Translations under genes and position numbers: made by a program
The notes under the pieces: model-generated
The model's input: the letters and a program-made list of their open reading frames with translations, nothing else
Told to the model about the DNA's origin: nothing
Database searches by the model: none
DNA from: a virus
Reading direction: 5' to 3' (one strand)
Length of the DNA: 64,000 nucleotides
Virus record (IMG/VR): IMGVR_UViG_3300012943_000029
Location: 2,176-66,175 of that record
Shown here: positions 5,950-64,000 of the stretch, piece after piece
How the letters are laid out: every line of letters starts with the position of its first letter
How positions within the stretch are numbered: the stretch's first letter is position 1

Positions 5950-6564
5950 TTACTTCTTCGTGAGGCTGTTGGCGAACTTGAGGATTGCTTCCTTGAGGTA
6001 CTTCTGTGCCTTAGGATCATTGACGACGGCTTCGGCGAGCGAGAGGATCTTCTTGTCCTCGACGGCCTCACGCACGACGTCTGGGTAGCAGCCTGGACCA
6101 GATGGCTGAGCCACGATGTCCAGCGTTACGAATGAGAAGTCTTCAACGATGCCCTCATGGTTCACGTTGCCAGTGCCGCGTGAAGAGACGCCAAGGCGAA
6201 CACCGCCGGCGATGAGGTTCTGAACGATCTGTCCAGATGGGGTGTTGAGGATCTTGCACTTGCCGACGGCGTTGTTGCCGTCCATCCAGGCCTCAGTGAT
6301 GATGTGTGAAACATTCTTGAGGTCAATGGAAAGGTTGTCTGGGTGGTTGAGCTCACCCATGATCGAGGTACCTTCCTTGATGCGGGTGTTGATCAACTGA
6401 ACTGCGCGGTCGATCTCGTTCTTTGGATAGATGCGCTGGTTGAGGTTCTTCATCTCGGCGGCCATCATGCGGCCTGCGAGGTAGAGGTTCTTTGACGCGT
6501 CGCGGCTTTCTACGAGCTGTGCTTCACTCGGGGAGAAGTGCTCGATAAGGATCTGCTGCTTCAT
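5950..6564 (-). CDS. gp21: prohead core protease, T4 gp21-like
   Basis: NQRIYP, GELNHP (His), GVSSRG (Ser) and TLDIVAQPS (Asp) motifs. Confidence 0.96.
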   Translation of the reverse strand: MKQQILIEHFSPSEAQLVESRDASKNLYLAGRMMAAEMKNLNQRIYPKNEIDRAVQLINTRIKEGTSIMGELNHPDNLSIDLKNVSHIITEAWMDGNNAVGKCKILNTPSGQIVQNLIAGGVRLGVSSRGTGNVNHEGIVEDFSFVTLDIVAQPSGPGCYPDVVREAVEDKKILSLAEAVVNDPKAQKYLKEAILKFANSLTKK

Positions 6565-6677: not shown

Positions 6678-8339
6678 CTATGCGACTGGAGCTTCCGGCG
6701 CTTTCGGTGCTGGTGGTTCTGATGGCTCAGCGCCACCTTCTTCAGCGCCGACTGGAGCTTCCGGCGTTTCACCACCCTCTGGGGCAGGCATTTCCTCTGG
6801 CTGTTCTACCTTGAGCTTGTCACGGTTCTCGTAGACGGCTGGGTCGTAGATCTGCTGAATTTCGTCAATGGCAGCAACGCCCTTGATGTTGCGCTCCTGC
6901 TTAACCATTGCCTCGTTCATCTGGATGTCGTCCTTGGTCAGACCGAGGAAGCGTTCCTGCATGAAGCGCTTGGACATGTAAGGCGTATCTTCAATTGCCT
7001 TGAACGACGTGATGAGCTCGGTATCGAGCGCGGCCTTGATGTAGATTGAGAAGTTCTGCGGCTCAACAAGCTTCAGAACGAACAGCTCATGGTCGACGTT
7101 GATGCCAGTCGCCGACAGGTAGTCCTTGAACTGCTTGTCGAACACGCTGTCAATGCTTGCCTGGTGGCGCTGCACGAAGTTTGCGAAGATGCGCTCTTCC
7201 ATGTACGCAACGCCGGTCTTGCCGTCATTGTCAGTTGCGCCTGGCGGTGTCTTTTCCTGGCCGCGCATGTACGAAGATGGAACGCGCAGGGCACGGAACA
7301 CACGGTCGAGGAAGTAGTCAAGCTCAGGAATTTCCCAAGTTGCTCCGCCAGGAAGCGTCTCAACGCGAGAGCCACGGCCTGAGCCGGTGACCGGGAAGAA
7401 GTAATCTTCTTGAATGCTCTCAGGGTTGTACTGACTATCCGTCTGATCCTGGTTAGCGGTGTTCGGCATGCGCTTCTGACGGATGTCGTTGCGCACTCCC
7501 TCAATGTACTGCTTTACGCGCACCGGTGGCATGTTACCAACGTCGAGGTAGAACACGCGACGTTCTGGTGCACGCACGATGCGGTAGATGATCGCGGCAT
7601 CTTCAAGCATCGTCAGCTTCTGGAAGTCCTTGAACGCTGCCTGCAGCACCGACAAACCAAACGGCGCCGAGGAACCCATGTCATCTGACATGGTGAAGTG
7701 GATCATTACCGCTGATGGGGTTACCTCAACGCTGTCAACGGTCGCGCTCTGACCAGGGTAGCGAGTTGCCTGCGCCGTCGAGTTCTGAAAGCTAGATGGG
7801 CGAATGTGGTACGCGACCTTGTTGCCCTCACGGTCCACCTCGATACCAATGACGCGCGTTGGGTCAACGTATTCCCACTGCTTGGTGTCGGACACCTTGC
7901 GGAAGAAGCAGTCGCCATACTTGATCATCGTGCGGCAGATGTTGAACACGCGCCTGTTGAGGGTGTGGAACTTTGCCCAGTGGCGAAGAGCTGCACGAAT
8001 GGTTGTCGTCGTCGTATCAGAGATCGTCTGATTTTCCTCAGTCTGGTAGTCGATGAGGAATGGAAGATTGGTGCGCTTGTCTGGCGCCGCCATTTCTTCA
8101 GCGATGATGTCAAGCGCGCGGTTGACGTCGCCAAGATCCATGGCGTCATACTGCTTGTAGCGCTGCATGCGGGCCGTCGAGCCCTTGAGAAGGTTTGAGA
8201 ACCAAGCGATCGTTGAGAACGAAGCATACCCCGCGCTGTTGAGGTCCATGCCATCGTCCATGTTAACGGACGGGCGCTTGTAGAGCTCTTTCCTTGACGC
8301 GGGGGTGATGATGCGCCAATAGTTTTGCCAGGTCGCCAT
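6678..8339 (-). CDS. gp20: portal protein, T4 gp20-like
   Basis: QKLTMLEDAAIIYRIVRAPERRVFYLDVGNMP, EDYFFP, VETLPGG and ALRVPSS motifs. Confidence 0.97.
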   Translation of the reverse strand: MATWQNYWRIITPASRKELYKRPSVNMDDGMDLNSAGYASFSTIAWFSNLLKGSTARMQRYKQYDAMDLGDVNRALDIIAEEMAAPDKRTNLPFLIDYQTEENQTISDTTTTTIRAALRHWAKFHTLNRRVFNICRTMIKYGDCFFRKVSDTKQWEYVDPTRVIGIEVDREGNKVAYHIRPSSFQNSTAQATRYPGQSATVDSVEVTPSAVMIHFTMSDDMGSSAPFGLSVLQAAFKDFQKLTMLEDAAIIYRIVRAPERRVFYLDVGNMPPVRVKQYIEGVRNDIRQKRMPNTANQDQTDSQYNPESIQEDYFFPVTGSGRGSRVETLPGGATWEIPELDYFLDRVFRALRVPSSYMRGQEKTPPGATDNDGKTGVAYMEERIFANFVQRHQASIDSVFDKQFKDYLSATGINVDHELFVLKLVEPQNFSIYIKAALDTELITSFKAIEDTPYMSKRFMQERFLGLTKDDIQMNEAMVKQERNIKGVAAIDEIQQIYDPAVYENRDKLKVEQPEEMPAPEGGETPEAPVGAEEGGAEPSEPPAPKAPEAPVA

Positions 8340-8351
8340 TATTTTCCTACG

Positions 8352-11318
8352 TTAACCGGGCGCTTGACGCCCTGTGATAAATCCATTCGCCGTTGGGATC
8401 TGTCGTGCCTGACTATTCAGCCTTGCAGCGACGGCGCGCTGTGGGCCTTCATTACCTGCAGCAGCCATGGCTTGAAGCACTGTGACCGCCTTGACCATGT
8501 TGTCGGCGATTGTCGCCAGGTAGTCGTGGGCCGTAGCGTCCTGCACGTTGGCAACGCGCTCGCCCTCATCATTCGTACTTGAGGTATCAGACAGGTTATT
8601 TACTGATGAACTTTCGGCTTCTTGACCTGGCTGACTGACGCTAGGTTGAGCTTTCGCGATGTCTCTTGCTGCCAGACCTGCGTCGATTGCCAGGCTGCCA
8701 GCCGTTCCTAGACCTGGAACGGTGCTTGCCGCACCTGAGGCAACCTCTAGACCTGCACCAGTCCAGTCTCCGGACAGCGCTCTTGAGGCACCAAATCCTA
8801 GACCTGCGAGAAGGCCGATGAGCGGGATCTTCTTGAGGAGGGACTTACCAACTGCCTTGGCGCCAATCTTACCTGCACCACCCGCGGCGAACCTGCCCAG
8901 GGCACCACCACCCCTTGTTGCCAGACCTGCACCCTTGCCCAGGACGCTACCCAGGCCACCACCAAGCTTGGTAGCTGCCTTGGCACCTAGGCCACCGATT
9001 GCTCCGAGACCCTTACCAAGCATTCCACCACCGCCGCGGACAATACCGCCAAGCATTCCACCACCACCCGGCAGTGATTTGCTTGCGCCACGAAGGCTGA
9101 AAATAAAGGCGGCCAGTGCGGCAGTACCCGATAGGAGGGCTACCACGAAGGTGTTTTTCATGACCGAACTAATTTGATTGAGCGTCTGACTGATATCTGC
9201 AACGGCAGCAGAACCTTGCGACTTATCACCCATCTTCTTAGCGGTTGCGTCGTCTACATCAAGGCCAGCGGCCTTCTTCTGCGCGAGCTCCTTACCAGCG
9301 TTGATCATGTTACCTAGCTCACCGCCAGGCGAGATAAGTTCTGCAAGCGTTTGCGCGGCTTCACCAGCACCCTCGCTCTGGCCATAAGCGTCAGTAACTC
9401 TGCGCTCAATGCCGGCGCCGGCCCTTCCGGCCAGCTGCTGAAGTTCTGTCTTCTCAGCGTCTGTTTTTCTTCCCTTGCGCGCCAGCTGCATGATGCGCAT
9501 CTGCTCTTGAGGGCTCATGCCTGCCTGAGCTGCAAGCATCATAGCCTTGGCGCCCTCACGGACGCGTGAGACTACACCTTCACGCTGCTGTGCTTCCTGC
9601 GCCTCAACAAGCTTCTGTGCCTGTGCTGTTGATAGACCAAGCTGAACATAGTTATCGCGCCGCGCGACGATCTCATCCGCGGCGGCCTCACGCTGCTGCT
9701 GGCTCATACCAAGCAGGGTGTTCTGAATTGATGAGTTGCTAAGAAGCTCAGCGTTGAGCTTCATGTAGTCGGCTGCCGAAATGTCAACGATGCCGCTGAT
9801 GCGCTTGAAGGACTGCATTGATTTGTCAATGAACTTCGGCAGCGCGTCAGCGCCCTTGAGGTTCGTGAAGCCTGACGCTGCAGCGTCCATCGCTGGGCCG
9901 ACGATCTCAGATGCCTGCTCCATGTTGTAGCCGAATTTTCTGAATGACTTACCGACGTTGCCAGTGAACGCACCAAAGTTATCGCCGTAGATACCCATCG
10001 CGCGCTTATTCTGCTGCATGAACTTGACTGTGTCCTCAAAGGACATACCCATCTTCATGCTTGCAATCTGTACGTTCTTGAACGAGGCTGGGATCTGCGC
10101 GGTGTTGAAACTGACGATCTCGCTCCAACCCTTCTTGACGGCTTCCTTGAAATCACCAAAGTATTTGGCGGCGGCACCTGCTTCAAAGAGGCTTTTACCA
10201 AAGAAGCGGGTCAGCACTCCAAGTTTCTTGAAACCGCCCTGCGTGTTTCCAAGTTCAGTCTGCAGGCCCTTGAGCTTGAACATGGCAGCGCCAAGAGGGC
10301 TGTTCGCAAGGTTGGCAGTGGCGTCAGCCTTACCAGAATACTTGGCATTCTGTTTCTGGATTTCCGCAAGTTCCTTAACGACCTCTACAAGATCGCTCAT
10401 ACCATTCTTAGTGCGGAGGTTCTCTAGCTTACCGTAATCGACTTGACCCTCAGTCATTACCTTATCGCCAACGTTGTAGCCCATGCCAGCAAGTTGTGCC
10501 GCTGCAGCGATGATCTGCTTCTTTACCTTCTTCTGGGTTTCAGTCGTGTCGCTTAGCATCTCCTTGATCTGATCTGTGCCCATCTTGGCAATGTCACCAA
10601 TGGTACCAACGTCAAGCTCAGCAACGGCGTCGTTAAGCGCAACCTCAGCCTCGCCAGCCTTGAGGCGCAACGCAGCGAACACGTTTTTGTCGAGGCCATG
10701 CTTGACACCGTTCGTGCTTTCATCCCACGCGCCCAGCGCTCTAAGAAGTCCCTGGTTAAGGGAGCCAGCAGCGCCCTGCAGCGAGCCTATCATCTCATGG
10801 TATTCTGTTGTGCCACGCTGGATCTCATGGCTTGACGCGATCATTGACGCGCTAAGCATTGATGAGCTACGCGCCTGCTGACTGAACTTGTTCGTCAGTG
10901 ACTTGACCGACGATGAGTACGACTTAAGGAAGCGGTCCTGCTCTGGCAGGCTCTTGGTGCTGAGGTACGTAACCTCGCGCTCTAGTTTTCTAAACGAGCC
11001 GGAAGAAGCAATGATGACGGCATTTGCTTTTTCAATCAGGTCTGTGTATTTCTTGTTGGTTACCTTGACGGTTGCGCCAGTATCCTGCATTGTCTCATCG
11101 ACAGTTTCAGCGGTAGTCGCAAGCTCGTCGAGAATGTCAGTGAGTTTTCCAGCGCTCTTCGCGAGCTCTTCGAGCTCTTCATCAGTGGCATCCGCTGTGC
11201 CAGACACGCCCTTGTAGACGTTCCTGGTCTTAGCAGGCCCTGTGCTCTTTGATGAGCCATAGAAGGCCTTCCTAATCAGGTCAAGGCCATTTTCAAGATC
11301 TTGATTGAGCTCAGCCAT
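8352..11318 (-). CDS. tail tape measure / gp29-like baseplate hub protein
   Basis: 988 aa, long helical Ala/Gln-rich region; Gly-rich segment followed by KSLLKKIPLIGLLAG...GDWTGAGLE, typical of T4-like tape measures. Confidence 0.75.
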   Translation of the reverse strand: MAELNQDLENGLDLIRKAFYGSSKSTGPAKTRNVYKGVSGTADATDEELEELAKSAGKLTDILDELATTAETVDETMQDTGATVKVTNKKYTDLIEKANAVIIASSGSFRKLEREVTYLSTKSLPEQDRFLKSYSSSVKSLTNKFSQQARSSSMLSASMIASSHEIQRGTTEYHEMIGSLQGAAGSLNQGLLRALGAWDESTNGVKHGLDKNVFAALRLKAGEAEVALNDAVAELDVGTIGDIAKMGTDQIKEMLSDTTETQKKVKKQIIAAAAQLAGMGYNVGDKVMTEGQVDYGKLENLRTKNGMSDLVEVVKELAEIQKQNAKYSGKADATANLANSPLGAAMFKLKGLQTELGNTQGGFKKLGVLTRFFGKSLFEAGAAAKYFGDFKEAVKKGWSEIVSFNTAQIPASFKNVQIASMKMGMSFEDTVKFMQQNKRAMGIYGDNFGAFTGNVGKSFRKFGYNMEQASEIVGPAMDAAASGFTNLKGADALPKFIDKSMQSFKRISGIVDISAADYMKLNAELLSNSSIQNTLLGMSQQQREAAADEIVARRDNYVQLGLSTAQAQKLVEAQEAQQREGVVSRVREGAKAMMLAAQAGMSPQEQMRIMQLARKGRKTDAEKTELQQLAGRAGAGIERRVTDAYGQSEGAGEAAQTLAELISPGGELGNMINAGKELAQKKAAGLDVDDATAKKMGDKSQGSAAVADISQTLNQISSVMKNTFVVALLSGTAALAAFIFSLRGASKSLPGGGGMLGGIVRGGGGMLGKGLGAIGGLGAKAATKLGGGLGSVLGKGAGLATRGGGALGRFAAGGAGKIGAKAVGKSLLKKIPLIGLLAGLGFGASRALSGDWTGAGLEVASGAASTVPGLGTAGSLAIDAGLAARDIAKAQPSVSQPGQEAESSSVNNLSDTSSTNDEGERVANVQDATAHDYLATIADNMVKAVTVLQAMAAAGNEGPQRAVAARLNSQARQIPTANGFITGRQAPG
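9016..9065. repeat. 17-bp direct repeat inside the tape measure gene
   Basis: CCAAGCATTCCACCACC at 9016 and 9049, encoding GGGMLG twice. Confidence 0.7.
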
Positions 11319-14792: not shown

Positions 14793-15333
14793 TTGTGTTT
14801 TCCTTATTTGCTATGAGCGCACCATCAAACCAGAACTGCGGATACTTCAGCAGCTCTTCGAGATAGGTGATGTAAATTCTTTGACCATTGCCTTCAATGA
14901 CAAGCGGACATGGGTGGAACCCAATACCTGTCGTTGCCGCAAAGATCGGCGTGTTGTTCCACTTGAAGATGAGCAGCGGCCGGCGATCAATCTTGACAGC
15001 ATCGACCTCAGCTTCCTTCATCCATGCATAAACGTTAGATGTTCCGGAAACGAGTGAGGTGAATGGATCCTGGGTCTTGTAGAACTTACATTCAATGGAG
15101 TGCTTGAACGTAACGCCAGCCTCCTTCTCGTTGACAGGAACGACGTCGCCAACAAACAGCTTAAGCGCATCTGCACCGAACATCTGCCCAAGGGTCTCAA
15201 AGTTCTTACCGCCAACGCGGGCGCCAGAGCTCTGAGTGCGAATGAACTTCAGTGGCGATAGCGCCTCTGAAAGCTTCTTCGCTACTGTTCCCTCGAAGCC
15301 GTTGCCTTTCGCCTTGCCACCACCAGGTCTCAT
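14686..15333 (-). CDS. Holliday junction resolvase-like PD-(D/E)xK endonuclease
   Basis: KAKGNGFE, RTQSSGA, GDVV and IECKFYK motifs. Confidence 0.8.
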   Translation of the reverse strand: MRPGGGKAKGNGFEGTVAKKLSEALSPLKFIRTQSSGARVGGKNFETLGQMFGADALKLFVGDVVPVNEKEAGVTFKHSIECKFYKTQDPFTSLVSGTSNVYAWMKEAEVDAVKIDRRPLLIFKWNNTPIFAATTGIGFHPCPLVIEGNGQRIYITYLEELLKYPQFWFDGALIANKENTNEPQESQGNSNGSSSGPQEGSSEGALDPLRSGEAG

Positions 15334-15701
15334 GCTGCGGTATCCTTGTCGATGGCACCGATTGAGATGATGTTGTACTCGCTGACCTTGCCGTTCTCGT
15401 CGATCTTGCCGATGCCAGCGGTGCGGAACACGATCTTGTTCTCGGCGAGCAGCTTCTTCAGCTCTTCGCCTTTCTGTGTCTTCAGCACAGTCGCATTGCC
15501 AACGAGGTAGCCATCTTCAATGGAGAGGTTGTTCACAACGTGCGACACCTCTGACAGCTGGACGCTTGCTTCACTGGGCATGCCAAGGGTACCAAGCACC
15601 GCCTTGTTTTCTAGGCGATCGATGGCTGATTGAATTGTGGCTGTTGCGTAGATGCGTCCGTTTTTGTTGGCAGCGTCGAGCTTCAAAATCTTGATCTTCA
15701 T
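15330..15701 (-). CDS. degenerate prohead protease paralog (gp21 fold, catalytic positions substituted)
   Basis: NKNGRIY, LGTLGMP, VSHVV, VLKTQKGEELK and FRTAGIG align with gp21 at 5950..6564; start moved to the ATG at 15701. Confidence 0.8.
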   Translation of the reverse strand: MKIKILKLDAANKNGRIYATATIQSAIDRLENKAVLGTLGMPSEASVQLSEVSHVVNNLSIEDGYLVGNATVLKTQKGEELKKLLAENKIVFRTAGIGKIDENGKVSEYNIISIGAIDKDTAA

Positions 15702-15937
15702 TATCTGTCCTCTGACCAACGCTTATCACAAAGCGTGCAATGGAAATCTACCCAGTAGCAATCAGCTGATGGGTCGTAGTTGCCGGTGTTTGAGCGAGCT
15801 GTCTCATCTAGCCCCTCTTTGGGGTGAGTGCATTCTTTCTGAATGCGCTCAAGCTCGGCTGTTGCCTCAGCGATTATGAGCCTAATCTCATCAGCTCGCT
15901 GCTTAACCGTTTGTCCTAGTCTTGATAGTGGGATCAT
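15701..15937 (-). CDS. small putative Zn-binding protein
   Basis: CTH...CYW...CTLC pattern; coupled to gp46. Confidence 0.65.
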   Translation of the reverse strand: MIPLSRLGQTVKQRADEIRLIIAEATAELERIQKECTHPKEGLDETARSNTGNYDPSADCYWVDFHCTLCDKRWSEDR

Positions 15938-18719: not shown

Positions 18720-19559
18720 TTACTTCCTCTTGGCTTGTTTCTTCGCCTTTTTCTTGGCGACCTTCTTGACTGGTTTCTTGACCGCCTTCTTCTTTTTCGT
18801 TGGCTTCTCAACGACAGCAGGTTCAGTCGGTTTTTGTTTGATGGTCAACTGCTTAGTGATCGGATCGTACTCATACTCACTAGGCTTGTAGACCTTCACT
18901 GGACCCGGGTTCATGTCATTGTAGCGGCTCAGGCGCTTCTCGCCTGGCTTACCAGGGTCCATCATCGAGAACTGCTGCTGACCAAACGAAGGCCGCTTCG
19001 TTGGAGCTTGAATACCCCGCGCCAGCCCACCGTTGTGGTTGTCAATCTGCTGCGTGGCATCGGCAAGGGCGGTGCTGTTGGTCTCTCCCTTTACCTCAAG
19101 GTGATCTTCGCTCTTGATCTCCACGTCATCCGACATGCTCGTCGTAGTGTCTTCACTTTGACGCCCGCTGTTCTCAAAGTTGTAGGACGGATTGAAGCCC
19201 GCGTCTACAAGCAGCGTGTCTCGGATCTTGCGGTGGTTTTTCTCTTCCGCCATGTACTGGAGGAATGAGTGGTAGATACCCGTGGTGTAGTAAGCAAATG
19301 GATTGCTTGACTTTTCCGGGTTGAACTTCAGCGCGTTGTTGCACAAGTTCGTGACGGCCGCAGCCACCATATCTTCTCGATATGAGTAGCCGACGAAGTT
19401 GCCCTTGTGTGAGTACCGCTCAGCAATCATCCAGATCATCCGGATGAGCTTTTCGGTTACCTTACCGAGGGCTTTGGCCTCTATTACAGCGGGGAGAAGA
19501 TCAGCATTTCGAACGTAGTGGCCTTCAGTAGAAGTACTTTTGGCTCTTTTGATTTTCAA
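18720..19559 (-). CDS. gp55: late-transcription sigma factor, gp55-like
   Basis: HYVRNADL, YSYREDM, KFNPEKSSNPFAYYT. Confidence 0.93.
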   Translation of the reverse strand: MKIKRAKSTSTEGHYVRNADLLPAVIEAKALGKVTEKLIRMIWMIAERYSHKGNFVGYSYREDMVAAAVTNLCNNALKFNPEKSSNPFAYYTTGIYHSFLQYMAEEKNHRKIRDTLLVDAGFNPSYNFENSGRQSEDTTTSMSDDVEIKSEDHLEVKGETNSTALADATQQIDNHNGGLARGIQAPTKRPSFGQQQFSMMDPGKPGEKRLSRYNDMNPGPVKVYKPSEYEYDPITKQLTIKQKPTEPAVVEKPTKKKKAVKKPVKKVAKKKAKKQAKRK

Positions 19560-61265: not shown

Positions 61266-61504
61266 GTAGCATGCTTCTCCACCTCTTCGCGTGTGGTGCT
61301 GGTTCTAACGCATGCATCGTCAAAGATGCTGTGAAGCACGTTCATTGTAAATCCAGAGGCATTACCTCCCCACACGCACCAGTCCAGTACCTCTAGCACC
61401 TGAAGCGGTGTAGGCTCATCGTCCCACTTCTCAATGAGTGGCTTCATGCTTGCGTCAAGCTGTCCATCCGGCGCTTCAAGCAAAAGCTGCTTCAGCTCAC
61501 TCAT
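61247..61504 (-). CDS. hypothetical protein
   Basis: 85 aa, coupled between primase and helicase. Confidence 0.65.
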   Translation of the reverse strand: MSELKQLLLEAPDGQLDASMKPLIEKWDDEPTPLQVLEVLDWCVWGGNASGFTMNVLHSIFDDACVRTSTTREEVEKHATWRKNF

Positions 61505-62526
61505 TTTCCAGCTCCACAGTGAATGTTGATAGCGATCTTTGCATAGTCGGCATCTTTAGGGATTGACTTGAAAAGCTCACGCGTTGTGTAGCAGAGGCCG
61601 AAGCGACGAACGCTTTCATTCAGGTCCTCTGTCCCATCTGGTGAGAAAGCGATCTCCCACCCATGTTCGATGACAGTCTCAGCGAGATGCTTCCCGTTGC
61701 TGTCTTTATCTATCACGAAAACAATCCTGCGGTTTGACTTAGACAGCAGGTCGATCTTAGCGTCGTTGAGGCGGCTGCCGAGAAGGGCCACACCATCAAC
61801 CATCATGGCATCAAACACACCCTCACAGACGAAGAGCGGTAGGTCAGAATAGCGAGTGAGCTCATCCATGTTGAACATCACTGCCTCGCGCCCGACAGGT
61901 GCGTTGTCGTAGCGGAGCTTCTCTTTAGGATCCGTGTGGCGCCCCTGCCAATAGATGAGGTTGCCGTTGCGGTAGTATGGAATGATGACGCGATTTATAA
62001 AGCGCTGCTCAAGTGAGAAGAACATCTGGTACTTTGAGATGTCAATCTTGCGGTCGAGCAGGTAGTCAACGAGCTTCTCTTGGTAGTCGAGGAACTCAGT
62101 GTGGCCTAGTGGAAAGCTTTTGGCTGGCAGCTTAATCGTCGGTGTTGTGGTGTTCACCTTCGTGAGCTTGCTTAGCGTGATCTTGTCGCTCTCACCCTTC
62201 TTGAAGAAGAGGGCGGTGTTGACTATTGGGCGAATGTCATCGTCATCAATGTCTAGCGCTCGAAGGATCGTCTTGAACTTGTTCGACATCTTACCGCTGA
62301 ACTCGGTGTAGCGGCTTGCAGTCGAGCAATTCCAGCAATTGTAAATTACCTGATCGTCTTCAAACTTGAAGCCACCTCGCACCTTGTAGTCGTTGCAAAG
62401 CGGACACTTGCCAACCCGCCAGCCTGTGCCGCTGGATTGCCAAGGAACTCGGGCCTCAATGAGGGATTGAAGGGTGGTTTTCTCGAACACGTTCTTGTTG
62501 TAGTCAGGCAAAAGAAAGGCCTGCAT
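61501..62526 (-). CDS. gp61: DNA primase, gp61-like
   Basis: Zn finger CPLC...CWNC, RVIIPYY, YWQGR, TOPRIM CEGVFD and DKD. Confidence 0.93.
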   Translation of the reverse strand: MQAFLLPDYNKNVFEKTTLQSLIEARVPWQSSGTGWRVGKCPLCNDYKVRGGFKFEDDQVIYNCWNCSTASRYTEFSGKMSNKFKTILRALDIDDDDIRPIVNTALFFKKGESDKITLSKLTKVNTTTPTIKLPAKSFPLGHTEFLDYQEKLVDYLLDRKIDISKYQMFFSLEQRFINRVIIPYYRNGNLIYWQGRHTDPKEKLRYDNAPVGREAVMFNMDELTRYSDLPLFVCEGVFDAMMVDGVALLGSRLNDAKIDLLSKSNRRIVFVIDKDSNGKHLAETVIEHGWEIAFSPDGTEDLNESVRRFGLCYTTRELFKSIPKDADYAKIAINIHCGAGK

Positions 62527-62571: not shown

Positions 62572-63198
62572 TCAGTGAGCGATCGTCTTTACGAGGACAG
62601 CCTGCGCGTAATCATTGGTCTCAGCGTCTTGACCCTCGGCACCGCCAGGTCCCTTGTTGTACGCCATCGCCAGTTGCGCCGCAGATGAGAAGCCGTACGT
62701 GTCGCGCAGGATCAGAAGGTACTTGCTGGCTATCGTCATGTTGAAGACGTCGTCCTCGATCAGCTTGGCTATCAGCTCATCGTCGGTGCGAGTGTGGAAC
62801 CTAAACTTTGTCCACAGTGCTGGCCATTTCTTCATGACGTCCCATGTGGCGCTCAGCTTGATCTGTGAAACACCGTAGTAGCGCTTCGTCGGTTTGAGCC
62901 CATACTCTTGACCAACCACGTTGTAGCGCTTGAGCGTTCCAGCATGGCTCTCTTGAAGGATGATGCCTTGAAGAAGCTGTGGGTGTTCGAGACCATCCTT
63001 GTTGGCGATGTCATACGCCATGCCAAGGAGCTGTGCCTGGGACGGGGTCGGGTCCTTCGGGTACTCGAAGGAGAACATCTGTGCTTCAGTGATGCTCTCT
63101 TTTGGTGGTGCGCTTTGCCCTTTAGCAGCGCTTGTGAAAACTCCACCAATGTACGCAACAATCGATAGTGCTAGCAACGCAAAGTGGCTTAGCTTCAT
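62572..63198 (-). CDS. lytic transglycosylase (SLT/lysozyme-like) with N-terminal signal peptide
   Basis: ILQES (catalytic Glu), YGVSQIK, IASKYL, AYNKGPG; hydrophobic N-terminus. Confidence 0.82.
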   Translation of the reverse strand: MKLSHFALLALSIVAYIGGVFTSAAKGQSAPPKESITEAQMFSFEYPKDPTPSQAQLLGMAYDIANKDGLEHPQLLQGIILQESHAGTLKRYNVVGQEYGLKPTKRYYGVSQIKLSATWDVMKKWPALWTKFRFHTRTDDELIAKLIEDDVFNMTIASKYLLILRDTYGFSSAAQLAMAYNKGPGGAEGQDAETNDYAQAVLVKTIAH

Positions 63199-63338: not shown

Positions 63339-63599
63339 TTATGGTGCGCCGAAGTATGGACCTTTGATGACTGTAATCTCAACTGCAGGCTTTCCATCTC
63401 TCATTGCGTTCACGAGAAGGTCTGTGTTTTCAGGAAAGAACCTCTTGAGAGAAGTTTTAACCTCGTTGATGTAGTCACGCACCCGGCCTGGCGGCATCTT
63501 GCCAATTTCAACATTGGCAATGATCTTATCGCCTGGACTAATCTCGAGCTTGGCAATGGAGCCGATGGTGACCGGCTCTCTTACCTCACCCTCGATCAT
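63339..63599 (-). CDS. 86-aa protein resembling the portal clip domain
   Basis: VEIGKMPPGRVRDYINEVK aligns without gaps to portal LDVGNMPPVRVKQYIEGVR. Confidence 0.7.
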   Translation of the reverse strand: MIEGEVREPVTIGSIAKLEISPGDKIIANVEIGKMPPGRVRDYINEVKTSLKRFFPENTDLLVNAMRDGKPAVEITVIKGPYFGAP

Positions 63600-64000
63600 G
63601 ACCTGCCGAAGACCTTAGATGTTGGGTCGAGCTGAACTTCGGCTGGGTTGGTGCCGAACTCAGTGCCTACCATCTTGTCGCCACCGTATGACTGCACGTT
63701 CTCGAGCGAACCAGTCGAAGCGCGTGCACCCTTTGGACGCTTGGCCTTGACGTTGTTCGTGTGGAAGAAGTCGAGGGCGTTCATGCCGTTCGAAAGCTTC
63801 GACTGCGAGAGGAGCTCCCAGCACTCGTACTTGTCAGCGTGCTGTGAAGAGACGATCTTCTTGATGCGGCCCTTGTCGATGGAGTGCAGTGGGTCGATGT
63901 CGACGTAGTAAATTGTGCCGTCCTTGAACTTCTTGACTACGAGGATTTCCTTGAGAAGTCCACTGTCGTCAATGTCGCACAGGTAAACGTGCGGGAGGCT
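63596..64000 (-). CDS. hypothetical protein, 5' end outside the window
   Basis: Frame open from 64000 (SLPHVYLCDIDDSGLLKEILVVKK...SNGMNALDFFH...); the ORF track's 63784 start is internal. Confidence 0.75.
   Translation of the reverse strand, partial: SLPHVYLCDIDDSGLLKEILVVKKFKDGTIYYVDIDPLHSIDKGRIKKIVSSQHADKYECWELLSQSKLSNGMNALDFFHTNNVKAKRPKGARASTGSLENVQSYGGDKMVGTEFGTNPAEVQLDPTSKVFGRS

Follow-up and report, generated by a model that had tools for sequence, protein, structure and literature searches.

The stretch of viral DNA analysed here (64,000 nucleotides of a giant T4-related phage, hereafter the window) encodes an 86-residue protein that, judged from sequence comparison, is a soluble single-domain homolog of the clip of T4-type portal proteins, in which the exposed tip of the clip is conserved. 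Profile comparisons indicate that its open reading frame, which we call the mini-clip, is a genuine gene and a copy of the portal clip, and homology between the two is very probable. We consider it likely, with a probability of roughly 0.6, that the protein is a competitive mimic acting on some ligand of the clip. The features concerned are as follows.

6678..8339, minus strand: portal gene of the T4 gp20 type, 553 amino acids (Pfam PF07230 Portal_T4, E 9.8e-84; gp20 in PDB entries 3ja7 and 6uzc, E ~1e-22)
7338..7577, minus strand: clip segment of the portal, residues 255–334, homologous to the mini-clip (hhalign; family profile E 1.2e-7; AF2 elements)
61501..62526, minus strand: DNA primase (Toprim, T4 gp61 type), a marker of the replication module
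62572..63198, minus strand: downstream neighbour, 208 amino acids, with a signal-peptide-like N terminus and a weak SLT (lytic transglycosylase) match
63339..63599, minus strand: mini-clip gene, 86 amino acids, ATG start, from the list of open reading frames; stand-alone homolog of the T4-type portal clip
63366..63422, minus strand: mini-clip residues 60–78, a beta-hairpin with an R-D-G-K turn (AF2 strands 60–66 and 73–78)
63438..63542, minus strand: mini-clip residues 20–54, comprising a strand, the G-K-M-P-P tip and a helix (hhalign columns; AF2 strand 25–31 and helix 37–52, pLDDT 85–92)
63489..63503, minus strand: mini-clip tip motif G33-K34-M35-P36-P37, read from the sequence
63596..64000, minus strand: 3' part of the coupled upstream gene (~146 amino acids when whole), which continues to window-equivalent position 64036

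The resemblance between this small protein and the phage's own portal had been noticed in an earlier reading of the sequence (the original prediction), and its description holds up. The two peptides that it compared are residues 26–52 of the mini-clip and residues 261–287 of the portal, a recount confirms 9 identities over the 15 positions that run from G to V, and the mini-clip lies ~55 kb from the portal, upstream of primase. BLASTP aligned mini-clip residues 30–53 with portal residues 265–288 without gaps (9/24 identities and 17/24 positives), at an E-value of 1e-4 for that single comparison. Taken alone, this match is marginal, because the earlier reading amounted to a comparison of all parts of the window with one another. 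With hhalign, the confidently aligned core comprised mini-clip residues 20–54, which match portal residues 255–289.

Far stronger evidence came from the family to which the mini-clip belongs. A word-indexed search found one homolog, P0002, which is 56% identical and lies on a 358-kb contig (the complete relative G001). Exhaustive HMMER searching of 1.84 billion representatives yielded a family of ~50 small metagenomic proteins, with 53 at E ≤ 1e-3; most of the 53 are 54–130 amino acids long, and none is a full-length portal. When an alignment of 42 family members (A2) was compared with 35 close portals by hhalign, mini-clip residues 20–54 matched portal residues 255–289 with a probability of 96.5% and an E-value of 9.4e-10. 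Against 66 diverse portals, including that of T4, the E-value was 3.6e-10 and the score 68.5, whereas the reversed query scored 20.3 and 20 column-shuffled queries scored at most 18.2. Pfam Portal_T4 was matched individually by 24 of the 42 members, below the Pfam threshold (best E 2.2e-5), and each other Pfam family by no more than one. The family consensus, V-[ED]-V-G-N-M-P-P-Q-[KR]-[AV]-K-E-Y-L-E-x-[VI]-K-[DN]-x-L-K, is nearly the same as the consensus of the 66 diverse T4-type portals, I-D-V-G-N-M-P-P-Q-R-V-K-Q-Y-L-E-Q-I-K-N-[ED]-I-R. The mini-clip itself matches PHROG 23805 (function unknown) at E 6.5e-6, through residues 12–60 and profile positions 5–53 of 72, and phrog_12349 is touched by the portal clip and by family members alike.

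Some members of the family hold more than one copy of the domain. P0049, a tandem of two, matches the portal PHROG 213 at E 1.7e-11, and P0023, a tandem of three, matches it at E 1.7e-6; tandem members match phrog_23805 at 5e-19 and 1.8e-10. Two or three clip-like domains in tandem were seen in P0018, P0023, P0047, P0049, P0017 and P0034, with some copies degenerate and lacking M-P-P. P0039 (202 amino acids, L005:387-995) has a crown-like helix, residues 5–35, that matches portal residues 454–483 at E 6e-7, together with a clip-like domain, the two pieces standing in the reverse of the portal order. We considered whether P0039 is a portal C terminus fused to a clip domain and rejected this, as the upstream gene is an SbcC/gp46-like C terminus; from its sequence, P0039 is a separate small protein with two portal-like pieces. 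Among 50,697 cultured phage records, tblastn found no match to the mini-clip at E ≤ 0.01 and none to P0023 or P0049 at E ≤ 0.001, and for P0020 it gave weak partial matches alone (E 0.1–0.7). Looking up the exact sequence of P0002 likewise returned no record.

The portals had a peculiarity of their own. Many of the close portal homologs, including P0073, P0085, P0088 and P0095, are 720–960 amino acids long and carry Pfam PF14890, which we take to be an intein family, and the homolog P0148 is labelled 'intein/homing endonuclease' by its source. Because local alignments to portals of this type cover only 54–69% of the queried central stretch (residues 200–400), the PF14890 insert probably lies in or near that stretch. 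The portal of the phage studied here is without such an insert.

The match is also specific at the scale of whole genomes. We ran the family profile in six frames over 12 phage genomes, ~3.9 Mb in all, where it matched only 11 portals and 3 stand-alone copies, with nothing else past E 0.01. On the phage's own 157-kb contig it found the mini-clip and the portal (E 1.2e-7), and in T4 its sole match was gp20 residues 280–310 (E 1.8e-6). Five complete relatives (332–368 kb) all yielded the portal, with an ortholog of the mini-clip in G001 only. Among five cultured jumbo relatives (RsoM2USA, XacN1, PA5oct, Atu_ph07 and GAP32), the portal was matched in four, and the same six-frame search with the family profile found no stand-alone clip copy in any. 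Because it is absent from four complete and five cultured relatives, the mini-clip is not a core packaging factor. The 358-kb genome of G001 also has a second clip-tip paralog of 63 amino acids (L096:1411-1602, minus strand) between nrdB-like and glutaredoxin-like genes; it matches the portal PHROG 213 at E 1.1e-5, and its start, R-K-V-F-Y-I-D-V-G-D-M-P, is very portal-like.

One reading of these data is that the similarity arose by chance, or that the open reading frame is not a true gene. The pairwise match, at 24 residues and an E-value of 1e-4 for one comparison, is short enough to suggest this. However, the 53 family representatives, the conserved synteny and translational coupling described below, the profile E-values of 1e-9 to 1e-10 with clean controls and a family profile that in ~3.9 Mb of phage DNA matches only portals and stand-alone copies make this explanation extremely improbable. 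The portal-clip resemblance that had been proposed is thus far beyond chance for the family, and weaker for the single sequence.

Much is known of the corresponding domain in T4. The gp20 clip comprises residues 279–358, which form three strands and helix alpha6 (PMC4493910). At its tip, N291, M292, R295 and K296 project beyond the capsid, where they touch the terminase gp17; packaging is abolished by N291A-M292A and by R295A-K296A, and M292I is cold-sensitive (PMC4493910). Moreover, a 24-residue gp20 peptide, 288–311, binds gp17 and inhibits packaging (PMC4493910). The inner clip loop contributes R338 and K342, both basic and facing the DNA channel, which are required for packaging (PMC4493910). 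Once packaging is over, the neck protein gp13 docks on the clip (PMC9958956). The portal of the window aligns to gp20 and the T4 tip residues contact gp17, so the segment matched by the mini-clip is not only part of the clip, as had been claimed, but specifically its exposed, motor-docking tip. The stretch of gp20 to which the family profile maps, 280–310, holds all four contact residues and overlaps the inhibitory peptide.

Consistent with this placement, the tip contains the columns that vary least in the family. The mini-clip motif G33-K34-M35-P36-P37 is the counterpart of gp20 G290-N291-M292-P293-A294, and in A2 the tip residues G33 and P36 are the most conserved columns, the start methionine aside. 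The pattern G-x-M-P-P...Y, singled out in the original prediction, is kept among the homologs, with G in 39/42, P in 40/42, M or L in 36/42 and Y, H or F in 34/42. At the columns of T4 N291, M292, R295 and K296, where the mini-clip has K34, M35, G38 and R39, the family has N as its commonest residue (14/42), M or L (36/42), a variable residue and K or R (33/42), respectively; the column of R295 is variable among portals as well. The equivalent of N291 differs among the closest orthologs, being K in the mini-clip, M in P0002 and N in P0003, and in P0002 the tip glycine is replaced by S.

Structure prediction was consistent with a clip, although it is not specific by itself. The AF2 model of the mini-clip, made with A2 as input, has a mean pLDDT of 76 (85–92 in the core) and consists of strand 25–31, helix 37–52 and strands 60–66 and 73–78. 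The AF2 model of the portal has strand 261–266, helix 272–288 and strands 313–317 and 325–328, so that the order strand, helix, strand, strand is common to both, with elements of similar length. After the helix, the portal carries an extra 17–25 residues that are missing from the mini-clip; a permissive hhalign alignment spans this insertion and pairs mini-clip residues 60–83 with portal residues 311–334 at a posterior confidence near zero. By eye, the hairpin turn of the mini-clip, M-R-D-G-K-P, resembles the T4 inner clip loop Q-R-R-D-G-K-A, with alignment confidence again near zero, and the R-D-G-K turn is a gap in about a quarter of members (10–11/42). P0034 and P0049 carry G-R-G-S-x-[VI]-E-V, as local portals do. 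Homology of the second half of the mini-clip, the hairpin, with the portal hairpin 313–328 is probable but not proven.

In Foldseek searches of predicted viral structures (BFVD), T4-type portals came out on top, with TM scores of 0.52–0.57 over 72–78 columns. The best match was a 613-aa portal vertex protein (E 2e-3, TM 0.55, 75 columns), and matches at probability 1.0 included the portals of Escherichia phage Bp7, Salmonella phage 38, Bacillus phage SP-15 and Serratia phage phiMAM1. The ESM Atlas returned a Portal_T4 fragment cluster (TM 0.56, residues 23–86) amid generic matches. No solved portal was among the matches when the PDB was searched with the AF2 model (Foldseek, VIA wide and VIA re-ranking); these searches returned common small alpha/beta folds only, such as the FtsZ C-terminal domain (Z ~5.4), DinI (Z 4.4–4.8) and MamM. 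The clip fold that had been predicted is therefore supported by the shared order of elements and by the leading rank of predicted T4-type portal models, but not by retrieval of solved gp20 from the PDB. We rejected an assignment to DinI, as a Z score of 4.4–4.8 over 55 residues is in the stated noise range of the tool and Pfam DinI is matched by 1 of the 42 members (E 0.16). An assignment to TOBE or Mop was likewise rejected: it came from a single 27-residue match to 1fr3 (E 0.0026, two-sequence profile against the PDB), Pfam TOBE is matched by 0/42 members, and the predicted fold is alpha/beta rather than a beta-barrel of about 65 amino acids.

We surveyed the gene contexts of the homologs, as the original prediction had proposed, and the non-structural setting upstream of primase recurs in every context recovered. 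The slot is constant: DNA polymerase B, RNase H further on, then the ~146-aa gene, the mini-clip, an SLT-like or other small open reading frame, primase and a DnaB-type helicase. The ATG of the mini-clip overlaps the TGA of the upstream open reading frame as ATGA, an arrangement typical of translational coupling. Across relatives the ~146-aa gene is 53–84% identical (another copy lies at L103:1749-2186), and across contigs where it is 74–84% identical the mini-clips are only 32–52% identical. In the complete relatives G002 and G003, the SLT-like gene directly follows the ~146-aa gene, without a mini-clip. Some relatives have a mini-clip in the slot and others do not, and the mini-clips diverge more than the upstream gene; the mini-clip is therefore a fast-evolving accessory gene, inserted at a constant place.

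Pfam, PHROG and Atlas searches gave no assignment for the ~146-aa gene, and the idea that it is a gp40-like portal-assembly chaperone was dropped, as there is no detectable relation. The 208-aa SLT-like protein downstream is kept beside primase in relatives and, by its signal-peptide-like N terminus, is probably exported, though encoded within the replication module. The helicase–primase interval of T4, with dmd, 61.4, sp, 61.2 and 61.1, resembles the slot here in having variable small genes near primase and helicase. Equating the mini-clip with T4 gp61.4 (85 aa) and its 208-aa neighbour with gp61.2 (208 aa) was also tried and rejected: length and position agree, but there is no resemblance by eye.

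Two further genes of this phage are unusual. Downstream of gp46/gp47-like genes, a 129-aa open reading frame (15330..15719, minus strand) is a shortened second copy of the prohead protease at 5950..6564 (BLASTP E 1e-11; phrog_207 E 1e-13). In this copy the protease motif G-E-L-N-H-P has become G-T-L-G-M-P and G-V-S-S-R-G has become V-F-R-T-A-G, so that it seems to be without the catalytic His and Ser. Directly upstream of the portal, in place of the T4 tail tube and sheath genes, a 988-aa gene (8352..11318, minus strand) encodes a protein with a glycine/alanine-rich C-terminal part and matches to endolysin/peptidase PHROGs.

On the timing of expression, the original prediction needs a correction. 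It had reported no TAAATA directly upstream of the mini-clip. There is indeed none at that place; a conserved late-type motif does, however, stand before the coupled upstream gene. The likely start of the ~146-aa gene is an ATG after AAAGGAG, and a GATAAATA / TATAAATA motif lies upstream of the gene, at window-equivalent positions 64110–64117, just past the end of the window. In seven of eight orthologous loci, [G/A/T]ATAAATA occurs 72–89 nt upstream of the ~146-aa gene, and the late-type motif is present even at distant loci with otherwise dissimilar leaders. Within the window, exact TATAAATA occurs twice against 0.18 expected, before the prohead protease gene and before a 1034-aa gene, and a gp55-like late sigma factor is encoded at 18720..19559. 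The implied non-late timing is probably wrong, given a late-type promoter conserved across relatives before the two-gene unit. We think it rather likely that the unit is late, and it would follow that the mini-clip is co-expressed with the portal and the terminase. A sigma70-like site lies further upstream of the two-gene unit, and earlier read-through from it is possible. We had favoured early expression on the basis of this site and of the position in the replication module, and withdrew that reading after the conserved late-type promoter was found. The leader of the ~146-aa gene contains the palindrome AACGTGCGCACGTT in this genome and in closer relatives.

How might such a protein act? In the explanation that we favour, the mini-clip would descend from a T4-type portal clip, from which it would retain the strand, the exposed G-x-M-P-P tip, the helix and the beta-hairpin, whereas the stem, wing and crown parts needed for joining a ring are missing. 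Made together with portal and terminase, probably from the late-type promoter, it would present the packaging motor with the same surface as the portal does. Because it displays this surface, it would bind the large terminase at the portal-docking site and compete with or tune the docking of the motor. Its target may be the phage's own terminase, for example free terminase kept in a portal-bound-like state, or the terminase of co-infecting relatives. The soluble portal-clip mimic of the original prediction thus keeps its basis in clip-tip homology, motif conservation and order of structural elements; solved portals were not retrieved, and the non-late timing attached to it is probably wrong.

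Terminase is the leading candidate for the ligand because it is the only one demonstrated for the isolated segment, in the form of the T4 peptide, and we regard this identification as possible but tentative. Several observations point to it. The profile match covers exactly the clip tip, with clean controls, and its only T4 counterpart, gp20 280–310, includes the gp17-contact residues and overlaps the free peptide 288–311 that binds gp17 and inhibits packaging. The best-conserved columns of the family (G33, P36, M/L35 and K/R39) belong to the tip and correspond to positions exposed on the portal surface, both AF2 models have the same order of secondary structure, and predicted portals lead the BFVD matches. 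The late-type promoter in 7/8 loci, in a phage that encodes a gp55-like late sigma factor, fits this target too, and members with two or three tandem domains would suit an oligomeric one. On the other hand, a self-encoded competitor of motor docking carries an obvious fitness cost, the gene is missing from the nine relatives without an ortholog listed above, the N291 equivalent varies even among the closest orthologs, and solved gp20 was not retrieved from the PDB, the beta-alpha-beta-beta fold being a common one. Moreover, a PF03237 search and a scan of three large open reading frames found no terminase gene on this phage's contig, which is 44% complete; the closest complete relative, G001, has a large terminase of 550 amino acids.

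Nearly as likely, though again more doubtful than not, is that the mini-clip is an immune decoy. A soluble, monomeric copy of the clip would bind a host sensor of the portal clip and, unable to build the dodecameric ring, would occupy it without setting off the oligomerisation that activates the sensor. Sensing of the clip has a precedent in SpbK, which binds this domain of YonE, the SPbeta portal, and apparently has to oligomerise on the ring (PMC11984713); Avs4 and RAZR likewise sense portals. An accessory, fast-evolving gene (32–52% identity beside an upstream gene at 74–84%), present or absent in a fixed slot between conserved genes, would fit a decoy, and the analogous T4 helicase–primase interval includes the anti-toxin gene dmd and the exclusion gene sp. 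Another head-assembly protein of this phage, the prohead protease, likewise has a shortened copy, with apparent loss of catalytic residues, and late co-expression with the portal fits a decoy needed when the portal appears. However, a conserved tip would be expected just as much if terminase is the ligand.

Two other explanations were weighed. In the less probable one, which we hold to be quite unlikely, the protein acts on the portal or the neck: it would bind the inter-subunit surface of the clip, or a gp13-type neck protein, and would either help assembly as a chaperone or poison head assembly or completion in rival phages through a dominant-negative effect. The docking of gp13 on the clip after packaging (PMC9958956) and the late-type promoter are compatible with such a role, and P0039, which joins a crown-like helix (E 6e-7) to a clip-like domain, hints at contacts within the ring; the sporadic distribution of the gene speaks against an essential part in assembly. 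It is also conceivable, but unlikely, that a clip fragment was reused for an unrelated job in DNA replication or recombination (for instance as a DinI-like recombinase regulator) or elsewhere, with the tip motif kept for folding rather than for mimicry. In all contexts seen the gene lies within the replication module, between RNase H and primase, and its model has a weak structural likeness to DinI (Z 4.4–4.8) and to the FtsZ C-terminal domain (Z ~5.4), with the N-terminal 27 residues weakly resembling a Mop/TOBE strand pair (E 0.0026). Yet these likenesses are at the level of common small folds, Pfam DinI is matched by 1/42 members (E 0.16) against 24/42 for Portal_T4, the best-conserved residues are the exposed portal epitope, and the promoter is late-type. 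Competitive mimicry of the clip, with terminase ahead of a host sensor as the ligand, is thus the reading that we prefer.

The portal clip tip is the docking place of the packaging motor and then of the neck, and is one surface that host immunity can read. A free-standing, recurrently duplicated copy of it would serve as a probe for how terminase and portal recognise each other despite their 12:5 symmetry mismatch, and for whether phages use copies of their own conserved proteins to blunt protein-sensing immunity. As a ligand of terminase, the mini-clip would be a natural modulator of packaging; as a ligand of a sensor, it would represent a new class of anti-defence decoy. Taken more broadly, and as a speculation to which we give rather low odds, giant T4-related phages may carry 'self-mimic' decoys, soluble copies of the portal tip and here also an apparently dead mini prohead protease, that saturate host sensors of conserved head-assembly proteins or disarm the packaging motors of rivals. 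If true, this would amount to a new principle of counter-defence or competition, in which a phage makes copies of an epitope found on its own virion machinery. In either case, the family of PHROG 23805 and 12349 would gain a first functional hypothesis, one testable by simple binding and co-expression assays.

Our literature search turned up no published account of free-standing portal-clip proteins; stand-alone clips have no Pfam family, and PHROGs lists the clusters as of unknown function. PHROG 23805 and PHROG 12349, both matched by the mini-clip family, are clusters without annotation or a stated link to portals. On present evidence from sequence, the mini-clip would be a case of protein mimicry or domain exaptation by phages, with a putative function. 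By its architecture and by the Pfam threshold it is not a portal, and we class it as a homolog of one portal domain. It has 86 amino acids where T4-type portals have more than 500, lacks stem, wing and crown, and has a counterpart for portal residues 254–334 only. It has no Pfam match at E ≤ 1 and falls below the Pfam gathering threshold. Its family, unlike the portal clip, has motifs of its own, F-P after the helix and an R-D-G-K-P turn, and its gene is accessory rather than essential and belongs to the replication module, ~55 kb away from the portal gene.

The closest parallels are with T4 and SPbeta. As in the mini-clip, the T4 gp20 clip has strand, helix and hairpin in that order, and the part of it spanned by the family profile comprises the strand, the G-N-M-P tip and helix alpha6; the equivalents of gp20 M292 and K296 are conserved in the family, and at the N291 column asparagine occurs most often. 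The gp20 peptide 288–311 is like the mini-clip in presenting this segment free of the ring. In the SpbK/YonE system of SPbeta, the portal clip is read by host immunity and phages carry accessory counter-measures (PMC11984713). The SPbeta inhibitor of SpbK, Nip, differs from the mini-clip in that it binds the TIR domain and is not a portal mimic, and the SPbeta portal is of a different family (PMC11984713).
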